Shown here: piece by piece, positions 39,066-47,218 of the stretch
How positions within the stretch are numbered: the stretch's first letter is position 1
Layout: every line of letters starts with the position of its first letter
Origin: Leptospira sp.
GTDB taxonomy: Bacteria; Spirochaetota; Leptospiria; Leptospirales; Leptospiraceae
Direction of reading: 5' to 3'
Assembly (NCBI GenBank): GCA_034439575.1
Contig: JAWXAQ010000011.1
Location: 1-47,218 of the forward strand
Length of the DNA: 47,218 bases
Translations under genes and position numbers: made by a program
The notes under the pieces: model-generated
Seen by the model: only the letters and a program-made list of their open reading frames with translations
Database searches by the model: none
What the model was told of the DNA's origin: nothing

Positions 39066-40178
39066 TTAACCGCCTTTAGTCACAATGAATTCTAAGATAG
39101 AAGCATAGAATTCGTTTTCATCAAATGTATCTGGTGGAATACCAACTACATCCAAATGATCTTGGCTGATTACAGATGCTTTTGAAGTCATCTGAGTTGA
39201 AGTTGGAGCATTTAGATTACTTACATAACCTGGCGCTGTATTCACAGTAATCGTATCAAATGATAGAAGATTTTCATTGTATTGTAGTCGATCTCCCATT
39301 TGTTGAGAATTGATACCAACAAGCCCGTCATCATCGTTGTTAGTTTTATTTCCGTCGCCTTTTCCTGCTGCACCATCATTATCGCAATCATCTAAACAAT
39401 ATCCATCACCATCAATATTGTAAAAAGCTTGTTTCACAAGGAAGAGTGCTGGATTCACATTGATCCCTTCTTGTGCTGTGATCAAAGAACCATGGTAAGC
39501 TGCATTTGTAGAACTCACGTTGTAATTTGTGTTAAATGCTTTCATTCCAGTGGTTATACCATCAGTTGATGAATAGTCATTGTATACTAATTGTTTCGCG
39601 GCTGCAATGCCATCACTACCAGAATTATAGATCGTGTTTCCAAAAAGAGTCGCAAGTGCATTGATCACAGACACAACACCTGGCTTGAGATCCAAAATGT
39701 ACTTAGCCATTGGAGATCCTCTATGCGGACTAGAAACTGAAATCAAGGCATGAACCACTTGACGACCGTATCTCGCACGTAAAACAGAAGCCGCTTTTCT
39801 CGCATCAATTCCACCTTGTGAGTGACCAATGATGTTTACTTTCGTTGCACCAGTTGAAGTCATATAGTTTTGGATTTTATCAGCTAACTGAGTTCCACGA
39901 ACTTCTGAAGATTGGAAAGGAGTGACGGAAGCCGCCAAAGCTTTTTGACCTGAATGAATGCTTCCATTGCAACTAACTTCTAGAAATTCATCACAAGGAT
40001 CGCCTACGAACACGCCGTAGTCGTCTCCAAAGTAAAAATATCCAAGTAAGTTATCAAATCCCGAAAGTCCATGAGCGAAGACAACCGGGTATAACGTCTT
40101 TCTCGCACCAGCACTCAAACTCGTAGCTAACGAGAGCAGTGCGATCGAGAGTAACAAAAGTTTTTTTATGTGACTCAT
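39066..40178 (-). CDS. Secreted lipase 2 (family I-like)
   Basis: Signal peptide, YPVVFAHG, VNIIGHSQGG, SPHRGS, DDGLV, DHLD. Confidence 0.92.
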   Translation of the reverse strand: MSHIKKLLLLSIALLSLATSLSAGARKTLYPVVFAHGLSGFDNLLGYFYFGDDYGVFVGDPCDEFLEVSCNGSIHSGQKALAASVTPFQSSEVRGTQLADKIQNYMTSTGATKVNIIGHSQGGIDARKAASVLRARYGRQVVHALISVSSPHRGSPMAKYILDLKPGVVSVINALATLFGNTIYNSGSDGIAAAKQLVYNDYSSTDGITTGMKAFNTNYNVSSTNAAYHGSLITAQEGINVNPALFLVKQAFYNIDGDGYCLDDCDNDGAAGKGDGNKTNNDDDGLVGINSQQMGDRLQYNENLLSFDTITVNTAPGYVSNLNAPTSTQMTSKASVISQDHLDVVGIPPDTFDENEFYASILEFIVTKGG

Positions 40179-40711
40179 AATTCACCTCAGGCGCAATCAT
40201 GTAGCCAATTGACCCACAAATCAAGTTAATTTTGTTAATTATGCAACACTTTTGACTTATTTTTCGATATTTGTGTCATTTTGCTTCCGTTCGGGCTTTT
40301 TTCGGACATACATTTAGGGATTTCGATAAATATAAAGTGGAATTGAAAGTTGGTTTTTCCAAAGACTTAAAATTCAAAATTCTGAATTTGGGAATAAAAC
40401 TTTGTAATTTTCTACTTGGGGGATGCCCTATTAAGCGCCAATTATCTAAAAATTCAGGTTATTGGAAGTAAACCTCTAAAATTATTTATATTAAAATTTA
40501 ATTCAAAATTCAGCCAATCATTTAACTTAATTTAGACGAACGTACGCTTTACAAGATAGGACTTTGAATATTTGGATGGAGAGCTTAAATATTTAAATAT
40601 TGGACTTACTCACAATGAAAAACGAAAATTACATATGAATATTTACTTATTTTAATATACGGAAATTCAATTATCTGTTGTCAGCTTGGATTGTATTATC
40701 CACCTAGAAGA

Positions 40712-41608
40712 ATGGGAATATTGAAAGATAATATGATAATGGATATGAAAGTCCACGGGTATTCTGAAAAGACGATTAAAACGTACACGAATTGCATTCA
40801 AAGACTCGCATACTATCACAAGAAGTCTCCTTTGGATATGAATGAAAAGCATATTTATGATTTTTTTCTCTTTCTAAGAGAAAAGGAACTTACGGAAGCC
40901 TCAATAGGTATTTATTACAGCGCCATCCATCTGTTTTGTGTATTTTTTGAAAAAAAAGGGATAATGGAGAAGATACCTGTTCCGAAAAGGAGGAACAAAG
41001 TAGTCGTTGTATTGAGTCAAAATGAAATGGTATCAATTTTAAATCATTGTAAAAGTTTAAAAGAAAAAGTAATATTCACGATACTTTACTCCACTGGAAT
41101 TCGCATAGGTGAATTAGCCAAATTAATAGTAGGTGATATCGATTATGATAATCAATCAATTCTTATCAGAGAAGGAAAGGGCAATAAACAACGTTATGCT
41201 CTCTTGTCAAACTCTACTGCAATCTTGTTAAAACAATTTATCGCTTACTCAAATCCTTCATCCTATTTGTTTTACTCAACGAAAAAAGGAAAAGAATTTC
41301 CCATCAATGTGCGCTGGATTCAAATGCGACTCAAAGAAATCGCCAAAATGGCAGGTATTAAAAAAAGAATAAAGGTGCATACTTTGCGACACACCTTCGC
41401 CACTCATCTGTTAGAAGATGGATACAATATTTTTTATATTCAGAAATTACTTGGTCATAGTACAATCAATAGCACTATGGTGTATTTGCATGTAAATCCC
41501 AATCACCTATTACAAATACCCAGTCCCATAGAAAAAATTAGAAATGCAAAAATGAATATATTCGAAAACCAAACAGATTATGGACTTAATTTAGAAATAA
41601 ATTATTAA
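40712..41608 (+). CDS. Tyrosine recombinase/integrase with N-terminal SAM-like domain
   Basis: Catalytic R (GIRIGE), K (GKGNK), HTLRH, LGH and Y (MVYLH) all intact; no IntI-type insertion. Confidence 0.93.
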
Positions 41609-41610
41609 GT

Positions 41611-41706
41611 GCAAATCTTGTTCCCATATCACTTCCCTCTCACTTCCGTGTTCGAAGGAAGGATTTCGATATGCATGTCTCCGTTACCGATGGAAACGAG
41701 ATTTGC
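41611..41706. repeat. Module A copy 1 (96-bp foldback)
   Basis: GCAAATCTTGTTCCCAT ... ATGGAAACGAGATTTGC terminal inverted arms. Confidence 0.85.
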
Positions 41707-41709
41707 TAA

Positions 41710-41846
41710 CCGAAGAAGGATCGATTAACTATATTTTTATTTAAAAAAAACGTCTAAGAATAATTAAATTTATGTACAATTTGTTGTTAGCCTCGAGGAA
41801 AAAAATCCCAATCTAATAAGGTGGATTTTATCGTAGTACGTATAAA
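41710..41846. repeat. Module B copy 1
   Basis: CCGAAGAAGGATCG...TTGTTGTTAGCCTCGAGG...AAGGTGGATTTTATCGTAG; recurs at 46165 and 46561. Confidence 0.85.
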
Positions 41847-41958
41847 CGTCGGTTACGCGTATTGTTTGCAAAACCTAACTAAAATTTAAAGTAGTATCAG
41901 ATTAGAAAGGCAGAAAAATGTCTTGAATTATACGAAGTAGTATCGTATCGTCGATCGT

Positions 41959-42174
41959 ATGAAAGTAACTGCAATATTACCAGATGAATTAGTGCTAGAT
42001 ATTCAAAAATATACAGATGGAAAAAACATTACTGATTCGCTTCAAAAAGCTTTATCCGAATGGCTAAAACTAGCAAAAGTCAAAAAACTGAATGAAAAAT
42101 TGAAAAAAATTCCTCTACAGTTTACAGATGGCTATTCCGCTGAGAAAGTCAGAAAGATTAATAGAACTAAATGA
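41959..42174 (+). CDS. vapB: Antitoxin (DUF2191/VapB-like)
   Basis: 71 aa MKVTAILPDEL... with ATGA overlap into a PIN toxin. Confidence 0.8.
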   Translation: MKVTAILPDELVLDIQKYTDGKNITDSLQKALSEWLKLAKVKKLNEKLKKIPLQFTDGYSAEKVRKINRTK

Positions 42175-42572
42175 TTTTAGTTGATACATCTGTATGGATT
42201 GAATTTTTCCGAGGTAATGAACCCTATTTTACAAAATTAAAGGAATTGATAGAATCATCTGATGTCTTAGCTCATGAAGTAATCTTTGGTGAACTATTAC
42301 AGGGTTGCAAAAATAAGGCTGAATTAAATTTCATTTTAGAATATTGGGAAAGTTTAAGCAACATTGTATCAAATGGATCCTTCATTCTAGCTGGGAAAAT
42401 TTCATTTGAAAACAAACATTTAGATAAAGGTATTGGAATCATTGATTCAATTTTAATCAATGAAACGAGACAGAATAATTTAAAAATTTGGACGTTAGAT
42501 AAGAAGATATTAAAATTACTTGAACCTAAATACGTCTTCGAAAAAAAGCCAACAATTCCTTTGGCTTATTAA
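42171..42572 (+). CDS. vapC: PIN-domain toxin
   Basis: MILVDTSVWIEF, GELLQG, IIDSIL, IWTLDK; C-terminus runs into module C. Confidence 0.92.
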   Translation: MILVDTSVWIEFFRGNEPYFTKLKELIESSDVLAHEVIFGELLQGCKNKAELNFILEYWESLSNIVSNGSFILAGKISFENKHLDKGIGIIDSILINETRQNNLKIWTLDKKILKLLEPKYVFEKKPTIPLAY

Positions 42573-42685
42573 AACTTTCACGAATCAAACCCGGCGATCT
42601 TCGGAGGAAACGGAGCAAGACACCTTGCTCTGGTTCCGAGAAGGGGACCACGATAGCGAGTCCCGGACTTGCCGGACACGCTTGC
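42541..42685. repeat. Module C copy 1 (5S terminator + 5S 3' end + multi-hairpin)
   Basis: AAAGCCAAC..TTGGCTT...AAACCCGGCGATCTTCGGAGG...CACGCTTGC. Confidence 0.85.
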
Positions 42686-42690
42686 AAATT

Positions 42691-42786
42691 GCAAACCTCG
42701 TTCCCATCTCCCTTCCCTCTCACCTCCGTGTTTGAAGGAAAGACTCCGACATCCATGTCTCTGTTACCGATGGAAACAAGGTTTGC
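42691..42786. repeat. Module A copy 2
   Basis: GCAAACCTCGTTCCCATC ... GATGGAAACAAGGTTTGC. Confidence 0.85.
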
Positions 42787-42875
42787 ATGCCAAGGAGAAA
42801 GATTGAAAAGCTGGATCTGTATTATTAGCTAGGGCACCTCGGATGTGTTATATGGATGTAGCATTTTCGAAAGAC

Positions 42876-42962
42876 CCGATCCCGCTCTCCGCTACAATCT
42901 TTCGCATAACTTTATGAATATGTATTTTATTTTAATCGGGAAAGGATTTCCGCTTCGATCGG
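42876..42962 (+). repeat. REP-like bipartite palindromic element (copy 2)
   Basis: CCGATCCCGCTCTCCGCTACAATCTTTC...GAAAGGATTTCCGCTTCGATCGG. Confidence 0.7.
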
Positions 42963-43185
42963 TGGTTTCCATATGCGTCCTTCGGAGATTGAAGTCGAAA
43001 GTCCTTTTCGTCTTACTTATGTTCGATTCGCTTCGCTCCTCCACCAAGTCAAACTTTCAGTTTGCTTGAATCCTCGCTCCTATTGTCGCTACGGAACGAT
43101 CGGTGGTGCGTTGCGTTTAATCGTATTGCGTAAAACACACAAAAATATTTTAAACCAGTATCCCGTTCTTGGAGGTCTTTACCCG

Positions 43186-43282
43186 GCAAACACTCGTTCC
43201 CATCTCGGGGCTTTCTCGCACTCCTGCTCGAATGCCCCCGCTTTGCCTTGCTGGCTTTGCTAACTATGGAAACAAGGTTTGC
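43186..43282. repeat. Module A copy 3
   Basis: GCAAACACTCGTTCCCAT ... ATGGAAACAAGGTTTGC. Confidence 0.8.
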
Positions 43283-43451
43283 TTGCCCGAAGAAAGATTG
43301 GTTACCTATATTTTTATTATTAATAATTTCACCTAGCATGAACTTTATTGATGAAACATAAGTTGGTAAACCTGAAGGGCTTTTTGATGAATTGGATTTT
43401 ATCCAATTGCGAATAAACGCATGTTAGCCGGCATTTCAGTAGACCCATTTA

Positions 43452-43688
43452 TTGAGAAATTGTAAAAGGAAGAAAAGTATTACTTTTGGAGCAGACGAAA
43501 GGGCAATCGAAAAAGCTCGAATTAAAGCAAGTACGCAAAAAAGATCCTTAAATGACTTATTCAATGATTGGCTTCGTAGATATTCTGATTCTGAACCGAA
43601 AGGCATTGATTTAGATAGTTATTTAAAAAAATTCGAATATGTAAAAATATATAAAAAAATCACATGTGAATAAGCAAATGAAAGGTAA
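43452..43688 (+). pseudogene. Degraded RHH-type antitoxin
   Basis: KSITFGADERAIEKAR...SLNDLF motif; no ATG start; in-frame TAA at 43671 interrupts the KITCE*ANER* tail. Confidence 0.6.
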
Positions 43689-44118
43689 GGTTTTCATTGA
43701 TACATATATCTTGATTTACATCTTCTCTAGAACGGATTTAGAAAAAAAAGAAATCTCTTCAAATATCATAAAAGCATCATTCAAATCTGATAAGTTTTAC
43801 ATAAGCTACCAAGTCATCCAAGAATTTAGTAATGTTATGCTCACAAAAGGTAAACCACCAATAAAGAAAGATGATATTTCAAGTTTTATTGCTAAAATTC
43901 TTGAACCGATGTGCTCATTTTATCCATACATAGATTTTTATAAAAATGCATTAAAATTAAGAGAAAAAAATAAATTGTCTTACTATAACTCTTTAATATC
44001 ATTAGCGGTATTAGAACTTGATTGTGATTTCCTATTATCTGAAGATTTTCAGGATGGAGTTAAGATAAATAAACTCAAAGTTCTTAACCTCTTTAAAAAC
44101 AGTAATCAAAAGGTATAA
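43678..44118 (+). CDS. PIN-domain toxin, probably degenerate
   Basis: VFIDTYILIY, QVIQEF, LSYYNSLI, LLSEDFQDG; Asn at a normally acidic PIN position. Confidence 0.8.
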   Translation: MKGKVFIDTYILIYIFSRTDLEKKEISSNIIKASFKSDKFYISYQVIQEFSNVMLTKGKPPIKKDDISSFIAKILEPMCSFYPYIDFYKNALKLREKNKLSYYNSLISLAVLELDCDFLLSEDFQDGVKINKLKVLNLFKNSNQKV

Positions 44119-44142
44119 AATTCTCTTTTATAATGCAGATAC

Positions 44143-44204
44143 GTCGGCTAATACGCTCCGCTCGGGACGGTCGCCCTAGTTCGTTATGCGCCATTGCATT
44201 AAAA
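44143..44204. repeat. attC-like site 1
   Basis: CGGCTAA...CGCTCGGGA...GCCCTAGTTC-GTTATGC; direct repeat of 44780-44824. Confidence 0.6.
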
Positions 44205-44261
44205 ATATTTAATGATTTATTTTACAAGAAGAAGACCAAAAACTTTAACTAGGAGATATAA

Positions 44262-44733
44262 ATGAGGAATTCAATAATCAGAGGATTATTCCGACATTCA
44301 ATTGAATTTTGAAAATGCTATACAGAAGGACGACGGAAAAGAATTCTATATGATTAATCTTGAAACAGAAAAACTTGATCCTAATGCTAAAACATCTGAT
44401 CTTTCGTATGCAAAATTAGTTCTACCCATGCTAATCAAGAGAGGGTCTTTTCCTATTTATGTTGGTTCATTCTTTTCTACTATTATAGGGGATTTTGGAA
44501 AAGGAATTACAAGAGTAGCAATCGTGAGATATAGATCATTGCGCGATTTCCTTGATATGAATGCTGATCCAGATATGGTAAAAGGTGCCCCCTTCAAATT
44601 CGCGTCTCTTCAGCACACTGAAGTATTTGCTACAAAACCAACAATTACTTTATTAACTATTCGTACTACTTTTGCTAGTTTATTGATTTTTGTTTATTTA
44701 CTCGTTCTAAAATTATTAAAAAAGAGTAAATGA
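44262..44733 (+). pseudogene. Frameshifted DUF1330-like cassette gene
   Basis: Strong RBS (AGGAGA) and ATG at 44262 stop at 44312; the body (FYMINL, VAIVRYRS) continues in the +1 frame. Confidence 0.6.
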
Positions 44734-44754
44734 ATTTTTGTCTACCTTATCGAG

Positions 44755-44824
44755 TTTTAATGCGACGGCGCATAACGGCGGCTAACACCCTGCGCTCGGG
44801 ATTTATGCCCTAGTTCAGTTATAA
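44755..44824. repeat. attC-like site 2
   Basis: GGCGCATAAC...GCCCTAGTTCA-GTTATAA; 5' part is an inverted repeat of 44183-44204. Confidence 0.65.
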
Positions 44825-44826
44825 AT

Positions 44827-45042
44827 AAAGCCAACTCTTCTGTTGCCTTATTAAATCTAATAAGGATTAACACGGCGACCTTCGGAGGAAACAGAGCAAA
44901 ACATCTTGCAAATTGCAAACCTTGTTCCCATCTCGGGGCTGTCTCGCACTCCTGCTCGAATGCCCCCGCTTCGACATCCATGTCTCCGTTACCGATGGAA
45001 ACGAGATTTGCTAACCGAAGAAGGATCGATTAACTATATTTT
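44827..45042. repeat. Module C copy 2 (internally deleted) + module A copy 4 (44915-45011) + start of B
   Basis: AAAGCCAAC...CACGGCGACCTTCGGAGG...CTTGC joined directly to AAATTGCAAACC. Confidence 0.8.
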
Positions 45043-45411
45043 ATTTTAAATAATGGCACCACTTGCTTGTTAGTTGAATTGGCATATTTTACTTATAAAC
45101 AAGTTCTTTTACCAAATGACGGAATGCTTAATTAATGGAGGTGGTTTTGCGGGGCGTTTTATCGTATTGCGTAAAACACTCGCGAATATTATCAAATAAC
45201 CTTCATACCGTTAGCGAAGGATTTCTTATGTAAGAAGAAACAAATCTTTTGGAAAATTAGTTTCAAATTATTTATAAAATCGAAATCTAATACTTGATTT
45301 GCGGACGATCAAGGAATAAAAAATTTTAGTGTTTCGTGAAAATTTATGTATAAACGAATAAAACATCTGCCATTGTAATTTTTTCGAGGTTCAGTTAAGT
45401 CTCAAAGCTTT

Positions 45412-45996
45412 TCACTCGAATGAAAAAGAATACAAAAAGCATTTTTCTCGAAATCCATTTGGACAGCGAAACATAAAATCAACATTCCTAGATGATGTAT
45501 TCGGTTTGGAGTATCTTCCTCCGAAAAATGCAACGTTAACTTTTCTGCCATTGCCAGCAGAGGTTTCATCCATAGCTATGAATCGAATTTCTGGCGACTT
45601 TTCTAGCCAATAAGAAGGGGATTGAAAATAATTGTTCTTTTTATTTGTGCCATCTAATACAGAAATTCGCTCTTGAAGAATGTCTGAATCAAAGAATAAG
45701 TCACACAATGAGATGTTATATGTTTTCTCCTGGTGATTATTTGACTGACTGAATTCACCGGCTATTCCCTCTCCTAAACTAAAATATACTTTTTCATCTA
45801 GAACTTTCTTAATGAGATTACAATCCCTAATCTTTATAATATTGAGAAACTCATTGAATTTCTCCCCTTCACCTAACTCTTTATCGATAATAATTTGTTG
45901 AGTCTTTGGGGCACTTTGTAAATCCTGCGCATCTTTTGATTTCGAGCAAAAAGTGAAGCAGAGCATATAAATTAATGTTAAAGTTAATCGTTTCAT
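45412..45996 (-). CDS. Hypothetical lipoprotein
   Basis: MKRLTLTLIYMLCFTFC signal/lipobox, AGGA RBS. Confidence 0.75.
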   Translation of the reverse strand: MKRLTLTLIYMLCFTFCSKSKDAQDLQSAPKTQQIIIDKELGEGEKFNEFLNIIKIRDCNLIKKVLDEKVYFSLGEGIAGEFSQSNNHQEKTYNISLCDLFFDSDILQERISVLDGTNKKNNYFQSPSYWLEKSPEIRFIAMDETSAGNGRKVNVAFFGGRYSKPNTSSRNVDFMFRCPNGFREKCFLYSFSFE

Positions 45997-46164
45997 TGTT
46001 TATTTCCTATCCAGTGATCGTAAAAATCCCTAAGTAACAACTTTGTTTTTCCATGTGGCTCAAAGGACTTTATATGGTTTTAGGTCTTTCATTCAATCCA
46101 ATTTTCTTTGGTGTAGCTCCCAAAAAGGTTCCTGTTGGTAAAAATTGTTTGGCGGGGTCCTTGC

Positions 46165-46851
46165 CCGAAGAAAGATCGAATAGCTATATTTTTACTATAA
46201 AAAATAACGTCTGACAAATGTTAAATTTATGCACAATTTGTTGTTAGCCTCGAGGAAAAAAATCCCAATCTAATAAGGTGGATTTTATCGTAGTGCGTAT
46301 AAATGCCCGTACATATAAAAGCCAACTTAAATTTGGCTTTTATACACTTATAAGTTCAAACCCGGCGACCTTCGGAGGAAACGGAGCAAGACACCTTGCT
46401 CTGGTTCCAAGAAGGGGACCGCGATAGCGAGTCCCGGACTTGCCGGACACGCTTGCAAATTGCAAACCTCGTTACCATCTCGGGGCTGTCTCACACTCCT
46501 GCTCGAATGCCCCCGCTTCGCCGTCCTGGCTTCGCTTCCGATGGAAACAAGGTTTGCTTACCGAAGAAAGATCGATTAACTATATTTTAATTTAAAAAAA
46601 CGACTAACAAACATTACATTTACTTAATATTTGTTGTTAGCCTCAATGAAGAAAAATCCCATTCTTATAAGGTGGATTTTATCGTAGTGCGTATAAATGC
46701 CCGAACATAAAAAAAGCCAACTATCCAATTGGCTTTTAAACACTTATAAGTTCAAACCCGGCGACCTTCGGAGGAAACGGAGCAAGACACCTTGCTCTGG
46801 TTCCGAGAAGGGGACTGCGATAGCGAGTCCCGGACTTGCCGGACACGCTTG
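46165..46851. repeat. Tandem cargo-free units B2-C3-A5-B3-C4 (396-bp period)
   Basis: CCGAAGAAAGATCG at 46165 and 46561; CCCGGCGACC at 46361 and 46757. Confidence 0.9.
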
Positions 46852-46865
46852 CACGCTCTTCAAAC

Positions 46866-46931
46866 AAAAAAAGCGAAGTTCTGCAACCTCGCTTTCTTAA
46901 ACAATAATGACGAACCCGGCGATGTCCTACT
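46866..46931 (-). repeat. Exact 19-nt copy of the 5S rRNA 3' end with its own terminator-like hairpin
   Basis: AACCCGGCGATGTCCTACT at 46913-46931 = 47109-47127; preceded on the + strand by AAAAAAAGCGA...TCGCTTT. Confidence 0.8.
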
Positions 46932-47064
46932 TCCACCCCCACTCGCTAATCCGCTCCGCGGGCGAGTGTCCAAGCCTTGCTCCCTATGGGTCGCAAGTCT
47001 GTCAATTCGCGAACCATAGGTTTTTAGTAAATTGGGTTCGCTCAATGAATTTGATTTTGTACAT

Positions 47065-47093
47065 AAAAAAGCCAACTAGAAGTTGGCTTTTTT
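47065..47093 (-). terminator. 5S rRNA intrinsic terminator
   Basis: AAAAAAGCCAACT-AGA-AGTTGGCTTTTTT. Confidence 0.85.
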
Positions 47094-47108
47094 ACACTTA
47101 TGATTGCT

Positions 47109-47218
47109 AACCCGGCGATGTCCTACTCTCCCATTGAGCGAACCCAATAGTACCATCGGCGATGAGAAGCTTGACTTCCGTGTTCGGAATGGGAACGGGT
47201 ATTGCCTTCTCTCCATAA
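47109..47218 (-). rRNA. rrf: 5S ribosomal RNA (5' end a few nt beyond the window)
   Basis: Minus strand CCCGTTCCCATTCCGAACACGGAAGTCAAG...CGCCGATGGTAC...GAGAGTAGGACATCGCCGGG. Confidence 0.97.

Follow-up and report, generated by a model that had tools for sequence, protein, structure and literature searches.

Extra copies of the 5S rRNA 3' end behind a Leptospira rrf gene as probable tails of structured, 5S-linked repeat modules

The window analysed here is a stretch of 47,218 nucleotides (contig JAWXAQ010000011.1, hereafter C11) from a Leptospira genome of 4.1 Mb and 36% G+C; it ends in a gene for 5S ribosomal RNA (rRNA), rrf, which is followed by a series of extra copies of its own 3' end. 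The gene occupies positions 47110–47218 on the minus strand (Rfam RF00001, 74.2 bits, model positions 9–120), its 5' end being lost at the contig end, and RF00001 matches nothing else in this region, even with E allowed to reach 5. Contigs C10 and C24 each stop inside the 5' part of a 5S gene, which indicates that the genome has two rrf copies. On the plus strand, the tail motif CCCGGCGA starts at 42590, 46361, 46757, 46915 and 47111, and a variant with one change, CACGGCGA, stands at 44871. GCCAAC hairpins at 42548, 44830, 46321, 46716 and 47071 lie 40–42 nt ahead of the tails at 42590, 44871, 46361, 46757 and 47111, respectively; the tail at 46915 has a different hairpin ahead of it at a similar spacing, and positions 46913–46931 reproduce 19 exact nt of the 5S end at 47109–47127 (repeat family D19). 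An original prediction, made from the sequence alone, had called five extra 5S tails, each about 40 nt from a terminator hairpin, and had singled out the 46913 copy as 19 exact nt of 5S behind a different hairpin; both descriptions hold at these positions. It had further inferred integration into the last 10–19 nt of rrf. The homology common to the rrf end and the copies is longer than such a core, extending over about 60 nt (tail, spacer, terminator and ATGTAC) at 75–85% identity (family D8), and the flank is no random island DNA but a conserved GC-rich module, 97–98% identical in three copies. The 10-mer AACCCGGCGA occurs eight times in the genome, both strands counted, against a chance expectation of about 1–2 genome-wide (our own arithmetic from the G+C content), and five of the eight occurrences lie within 42588–47109.

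Alignment of the copies revealed that the tails are the 3' ends of two structured module families on the same (minus) strand as rrf: module A (about 105 nt), of which the window has three full copies and a deleted one, and module C (about 138 nt), of which it has a single copy. Reading 3' from rrf, the order is terminator T1, module C, terminator T2, module A copy c4, a T1-like terminator, a block of dispersed repeats (post-B and a B hairpin), copy c3 and a second T1-like terminator; farther from rrf follow c2, a deletion derivative (44909–44869), and then c1 (42690–42581). T1 (47064–47094) is palindromic (GCCAAC..GTTGGC; inverted repeat I22, arms of 14 nt with 100% complementarity) and has both an A-run and a T-run; it was not picked up by the terminator-scan pattern. 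Module C (46912–47049, minus strand; model R2, 148.9 bits; RNA fold z-score −3.54) begins with a 17-nt perfect antisense to the 5S interior (47031–47047 versus 47132–47148; inverted repeat I12) and ends in 46913–46931, identical to the 5S end at 19/19 nt. T2 (46862–46898, minus strand) was read from the sequence as GCGAGG..CTTCGC followed by a T-run; it is one-directional, with a T-run in the 5S sense only, and in relatives the equivalent hairpin comes after C or directly after 5S.

Among the copies of module A, c4 (46748–46857, minus strand; model R1, 100.8 bits; fold z-score −2.20), with the tail TCGCCGGGTT at 46755–46764, comes after T2, as module A does in relatives, and is followed by a T1-like terminator of 11 pairs at 46712–46737 (minus strand, terminator scan). 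Copy c3 (46352–46461, minus strand; R1, 103 bits) is 98% identical to c4 by BLAST; it is preceded by a B hairpin in place of T2 and followed by the T1-like terminator at 46314–46344 (inverted repeat I23). The remnant c2 (44869–44909, minus strand), recognized by alignment and by 90% BLAST identity over 41 nt, ends in the variant tail and has lost its first two thirds between two GCAAG words. Copy c1 (42581–42690, minus strand; R1, 99.3 bits) lies 4.4 kb from rrf, and its terminator (42546–42567) overlaps the end of a PIN-domain gene on the opposite strand, according to the terminator scan and the list of open reading frames (ORFs). Copies c1, c3 and c4 are 97–98% identical to one another by BLAST; in family D4, composed of terminator, spacer, tail and the beginning of A, identity between copies is no more than 62–79%. 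With the 5S end itself module A shares just 10–11 nt, with one further change in c2.

BLAST searches detected module A in 17 of 36 same-genus genomes and in none of the 24 genomes of the other family searched, with a complete 5S gene beside it in 9 of 11 loci. The loci of relatives are tandem arrays behind 5S, arranged as 5S–T1–C–T2–A or 5S–T2–A–T1–C–T2–A, and every unit in them ends in the local 5S tail; the starts 5S–T1–C–T2–A and 5S–T2–A correspond to two distance classes, at about 57 and 262 nt. Five further complete relatives each carry two stand-alone 5S genes that are 5.5–10.6 kb from each other; each gene has an array, and no 23S gene is close by. When models were used, R1 (module A) matched 37 of 40 genus genomes, and 81 of its 99 matches came after a same-strand 5S gene, at a distance of 47–658 nt; the remainder, 18 in all, were mostly the window's c1, matches at contig ends and partial matches of 36 nt. 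Counted from the 5S genes, which were mapped in 40 of the 41 genus genomes, an R1 match stands behind 59 of 76. Model R2 (module C) matched 34 of 40 genus genomes and two of five genomes of a sister genus; 55 of the 68 genus matches are preceded on their own strand by a 5S gene, 50–467 nt away, and in one genome of genus g17 a C-like match trails a 5S gene by 130 nt. A search of 185,579 species genomes with an exact degenerate module A pattern recovered 18 stretches, all of them from saprophytic-group Leptospira. Comparison of the proteins at the rrf loci of five relatives with those of the window showed nothing in common beyond rrf and the modules, and an Rfam scan of 41500–47218 (gathering scores; E up to 5) assigned none of A, B and C to a family, its matches being 5S, Flavo-1 and others at chance level.

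Weak R1 matches in genus g26 (5/24 genomes) are probably due to chance, as no 5S gene lies within 1.5 kb at the three loci checked. A third module type was observed behind some 5S genes (loci L009, L012 and L017, e.g., L017:9858–9978), with A-like 5' and 3' ends, another interior and R1 scores of about 40 bits, and it appears to be the sole type found by R1 in several species. The idea that module A is a diverged 5S gene was rejected, the weak matches of about 40 bits being this third module type and not 5S genes; R1 gives no match to the 5S genes of the loci examined.

For module A, 33 distinct copies were aligned, and their common fold is a three-way junction in which part of the tail contributes to the closing helix. 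When this helix is extended, 97% of cells are paired, and 13 of the 30 base pairs have changed in both partners; the covariation score was reached by none of 500 shuffles, and slid controls give at most three such pairs. A 14-nt hairpin of module A is invariant in 32 of the 33 sequences. The 12 aligned C copies form three hairpins and a free, single-stranded 5S tail, with compensatory changes in 7 of 34 pairs. In hairpin 1, the start of the antisense stretch pairs with a 5S-like strand, GUUCGCGAAAUG, and one pair of copies shows a compensatory change there; the antisense stretch as a whole is kept in 12 of 12 copies, mostly with 0–3 changes. The window's own A and C fold better than shuffled sequences (z of −2.2 and −3.5).

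The tails also bear marks of exchange. In this genome, the 5S, C and A tails all read TCGCC, and most relatives have TTGCC; across 27 loci, partly redundant in that several come from the same genome, the 4-nt tail variant fully matches the local 5S in 22. Chimeras of A and C occur, and different units are joined at the 5S 3' end in orders that differ between genomes. In four metagenome runs, used as DNA contigs of the same organism, a second rrf arrangement was found in which 5S leads straight into a T2–A variant (a loose end at 46931; a 173-nt contig with 11 differences). The junction at the 5S 3' end, the varied order of units and the tails of each genome's own variant together indicate that sequence has been exchanged at the tail; the tail variants, chimeras and second arrangement fit a history of unequal recombination and gene conversion between tails.

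We therefore propose that the extra 5S tails are, probably though by no means certainly, the 3' ends of 5S-linked repeat modules, the Leptospira counterpart of the tRNA-linked repeats (TLRs) of Escherichia coli. Since 1978, E. coli has been known to carry repeats whose ends copy the adjacent tRNA or 5S gene. Stenum et al. 2021 (PMC8144298) describe TLRs as matching the last 18–19 bp of the tRNA or 5S gene that precedes them; rrA, rrB and rrF, located between T1 and T2 after the rrnA, rrnB and rrnD 5S genes, are read-through products, and the TLR tail is proposed as an RNase E signal, TLRs still being given there as without known function. The Leptospira units resemble TLRs in lying directly behind a stable-RNA gene, on its strand, each ending in that gene's 3' end, in standing between terminators in arrays of one to several, and in having a shared tail that may be a processing signal. 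They differ from TLRs in showing no sequence or Rfam relation to TLR RNAs, in comprising two to three unrelated, alternating module families, in the shared end of module A, only 10–11 nt long (that of module C matches at 19/19 nt), in the additional antisense of module C to an internal 5S stretch, and in a host 5S gene that stands alone, outside any rRNA operon. Moreover, GGA motifs are not enriched in the Leptospira modules, leaving a link to CsrA unsupported. No description of rrf-linked modules in Leptospira was found in the main texts of the open literature searched, including passages of PMC10715090.

In the mechanism that we envisage for these 5S-linked modules, they would be transcribed from the rrf promoter through terminator read-through and released by the 5S-trimming enzyme, recruited by the shared tail, in line with a proposal made for E. 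coli RrB. The array would grow, shrink and reshuffle by recombination between the repeated tails and terminators, and gene conversion would keep the tails like the genome's own 5S. Several points weigh against this interpretation. A search for RNA runs containing 46300–47105 gave none. A promoter scan gave no sigma-70-like promoter ahead of A or C on the minus strand, and read-through is assumed; the missing promoter-like site fits read-through without demonstrating it. Module A shares 10–11 nt with the 5S end, versus 18–19 nt in the E. coli repeats, and covariation alone fits RNA and single-stranded DNA structure alike. The sharp break at the tail, between 97–98% identity of the A copies and 62–79% in D4, would also be produced by site-specific recombination, and a recombinase gene lies 1 kb from c1.

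Module C invites a more specific, and rather improbable, extension: it may be a dedicated anti-5S RNA, and the inverted repeat that its antisense stretch forms with 5S may let the tail-terminator segment flip in DNA. A conserved stretch of 21–24 nt in module C is complementary to 5S nt ~76–97. Half of it is held in the internal hairpin against the 5S-like decoy GUUCGCGAAAUG, with a tandem G.A mismatch, and the other half is exposed in a loop; in the predicted fold, this exposed half can be likened to a toehold. Since C would arise only on read-through of the rrf terminator, it could sense or titrate free 5S rRNA and so couple ribosome assembly to rrf output. By analogy with RrB, a role of the modules as a CsrA sponge was considered and rejected: GGA counts in 12 C and 12 A copies are not above those of shuffles, the best case having 8 (mean of its shuffles, 4.3; fraction of shuffles with as many, 0.029) and most fractions exceeding 0.1.

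The spread of the copies over 4.6 kb arises because c3, c2 and c1, each joined to a B hairpin, sit in or at the edge of an accessory stretch of 6.4 kb, which contains a recombinase, two toxin-antitoxin pairs and two ORFs and is rich in B hairpins and Flavo-1-like repeats. Its left end falls within 40265–40331, alignments to the closest relatives, G024 and G030, ending at 40264 and 40331. A lipase gene (39066–40178) lies 6.9 kb from rrf here versus 120–127 kb in 13 relatives with both on one contig. The closest relatives' DNA next to the breakpoint maps to two adjoining parts of contig C33 (about 48.4–51.4 kb) that flank a B copy, and the reciprocal junction on C33 holds the B copy C33:50987–51105; the rrf trailer of the closest relative is compact and followed by ordinary genes. 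From the lost synteny, the moved lipase gene and the compact trailer of the relative, we conclude that 40.3–46.7 kb is an accessory stretch at a rearrangement junction.

The tyrosine recombinase gene (40691–41608, plus strand; 305 amino acids) matches Pfam PF00589 (E 4e-42) and NCBIfam NF040815 (231 bits, cut-off 220). The XerA-type NF040815 is its best family; TIGR02249 scores 162 bits in two stretches, below its cut-off of 265. Judged by these profiles, it is an accessory gene of XerA- or integron-integrase-like type, without the integron-specific insert. It lies left of the leftmost tail copy (42590), hence outside the tail repeats. Orthologues (51–59% identity) were detected in 18 of 40 relatives; none of those listed is near rrf, the distance exceeding 340 kb in five genomes with both on one contig, and B or post-B repeats were absent beside the orthologues at nine loci examined. 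The two PIN-domain toxin-antitoxin pairs (41959–44118, comprising 41959–42572 and 43452–44118, plus strand; Pfam PF01850) lie between module copies. The region of the second pair (43458–44147) has an 85%-identical copy at C7:104654–105343, with homology limited to the two genes; each copy has B hairpins close by. A 143-amino-acid ORF at 44302–44733, of no known family, is bracketed at 44141–44204 and 44755–44816 by two repeats, one direct (42 nt) and one inverted (23 nt, 91% complementary); the repeat ends resemble GTTAT.../...ATAAC, and the layout is cassette-like.

The B hairpin at 46461–46557 is a dispersed repeat (families D2 and D6; inverted repeats I7 and I10), with further copies in the window at 41607–41706, 42687–42786, 43193–43287 and 44921–45015. 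It measures about 100–120 nt and consists of a 19-bp base stem that is conserved (TGCAAAC...GTTTGCA) and a middle that varies and folds on itself. BLAST gave 29 matches genome-wide, 23 of which are on nine other contigs (C7, C8, C17, C22, C28, C30, C33, C35 and C36). The copies are often clustered and near accessory genes, one starting at the recombinase stop codon, and the fold is stronger on the minus strand (−47.9 versus −36.7 kcal/mol). A Flavo-1 RNA motif (42874–42970, minus strand; Rfam RF01705, 53.5 bits) has 19 BLAST matches genome-wide, frequently adjoining B hairpins, which suggests a dispersed repeat element here rather than a single-copy small RNA gene. Chromosomal integrons combine IntI with attC hairpins and often carry toxin-antitoxin cassettes. 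The accessory stretch resembles such arrays in that small gene units, with toxin-antitoxin cargo, come after an IntI/XerA-like recombinase and have imperfect B hairpins of about 100 nt between them. It is unlike them in that the recombinase has no integron-specific insert, orthologues have no adjacent B hairpins and B is dispersed on nine other contigs; in any case, the likeness concerns the accessory stretch and not the 5S tails.

Integrative elements that insert at the 3' end of a tRNA or tmRNA gene duplicate part of that gene at their distal att site, and the original prediction read the tails as att-like duplications of this kind. Tyrosine-recombinase elements would have integrated repeatedly in the last 10–19 nt of rrf, each bringing a replacement tail and terminator and displacing the old ones. 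We consider this unlikely, even though direct repeats of a stable-RNA 3' end do occur here together with a tyrosine recombinase at 40691–41608 and accessory toxin-antitoxin genes between the copies, identity breaks sharply at the tail (97–98% in module A versus 62–79% in D4), and the closest relatives lack 40.3–46.7 kb both beside rrf and beside the lipase gene. The recombinase is not enclosed by two att copies but lies beyond the leftmost tail, and no 5S-like core was seen at 40150–40720. In other genomes, the repeats belong to conserved structured modules that are present without an integrase in nearly all relatives; 37 of 40 have modules, yet no listed recombinase orthologue lies near rrf, and the orthologues in nine relatives are not accompanied by B or post-B repeats. 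The modules next to the tails show compensatory changes, which are not expected of a scar. An integration history would predict relatives with an empty site, or with this integrase at that site; 37 of 40 carry modules behind rrf, and none of the 18 with an orthologue has it near rrf. No attP-like copy was found in 72,556 plasmid and 50,697 phage records or in viral contigs; a C–T2–A copy was likewise absent from the plasmid and phage records, and the viral contig collection yielded no module A pattern, although these collections hold few Leptospira elements, which makes the attP test weak. What stands of the prediction is the real junction at the 5S 3' end and exchange at the tail; integrase-driven scars appear unlikely, as modules follow 5S in 37 of 40 genomes without a nearby integrase.

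Nor does it seem probable that the array is neutral debris, i.e., repeated duplications of the rrf 3' end and terminator, filled with junk and amounting to redundant terminators behind a strongly transcribed gene. The tandem layout with two to three terminators per array would suit such an origin, as would the resemblance of parts of module C to 5S pieces in both orientations, as expected after partial duplications. Against it, the bodies of A and C are conserved genus-wide with compensatory pair changes, the 14-nt hairpin of module A is invariant in 32 of 33 sequences, and the antisense stretch of C is retained in 12 of 12 aligned copies, mostly with 0–3 changes. A DNA switch, in which the inverted repeats are the 5S-internal sequence and its antisense counterpart in C, the 5S tail–T1 segment between them (84 nt here) flips and one rrf copy is turned off, appears very unlikely. 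It draws on the perfect 17-nt inverted repeat that flanks tail and T1 (I12), which is 21–24 nt long in relatives, and on a flipped junction, with the reverse-complement tail joined to the start of C, at a contig end in 3 of 41 genus assemblies: L010 (G032:C7 end), L054 (G103:C2:1–340) and L056 (G034:C10:1–340). These contigs show, in order, a perfect 75-nt inverted copy of the start of C, the reversed 5S tail–T1–spacer and module C. However, all three cases lie at short-read contig ends, beside 75-nt perfect palindromic arms; the junction was found nowhere else in the 41 genus genomes searched, including those assembled into 3–5 contigs, nor in this genome's assembly, and no strand-changing joint was present there among those listed from the four metagenome runs. 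The flipped segment may be either a real inversion or an assembly effect.

If the tails do end 5S-linked repeat modules, Leptospira would provide an independent, sequence-unrelated case of stable-RNA-linked repeats, in the spirochaetes. It would go beyond the E. coli case in the compensatory changes of two families, in a linkage to stand-alone 5S genes found in almost every species of the genus, in tails that track the host 5S variant and in a module that is antisense to an internal 5S stretch. For annotation, the locus cautions against calling every partial stable-RNA copy next to a recombinase an att site. Whether the modules give processed RNAs, what the tail recruits and whether C pairs with 5S are questions that can now be tested in a harmless, culturable saprophyte, and an anti-5S RNA or a DNA flip, if true, would be the first mechanistic role for tRNA- or 5S-linked repeats.

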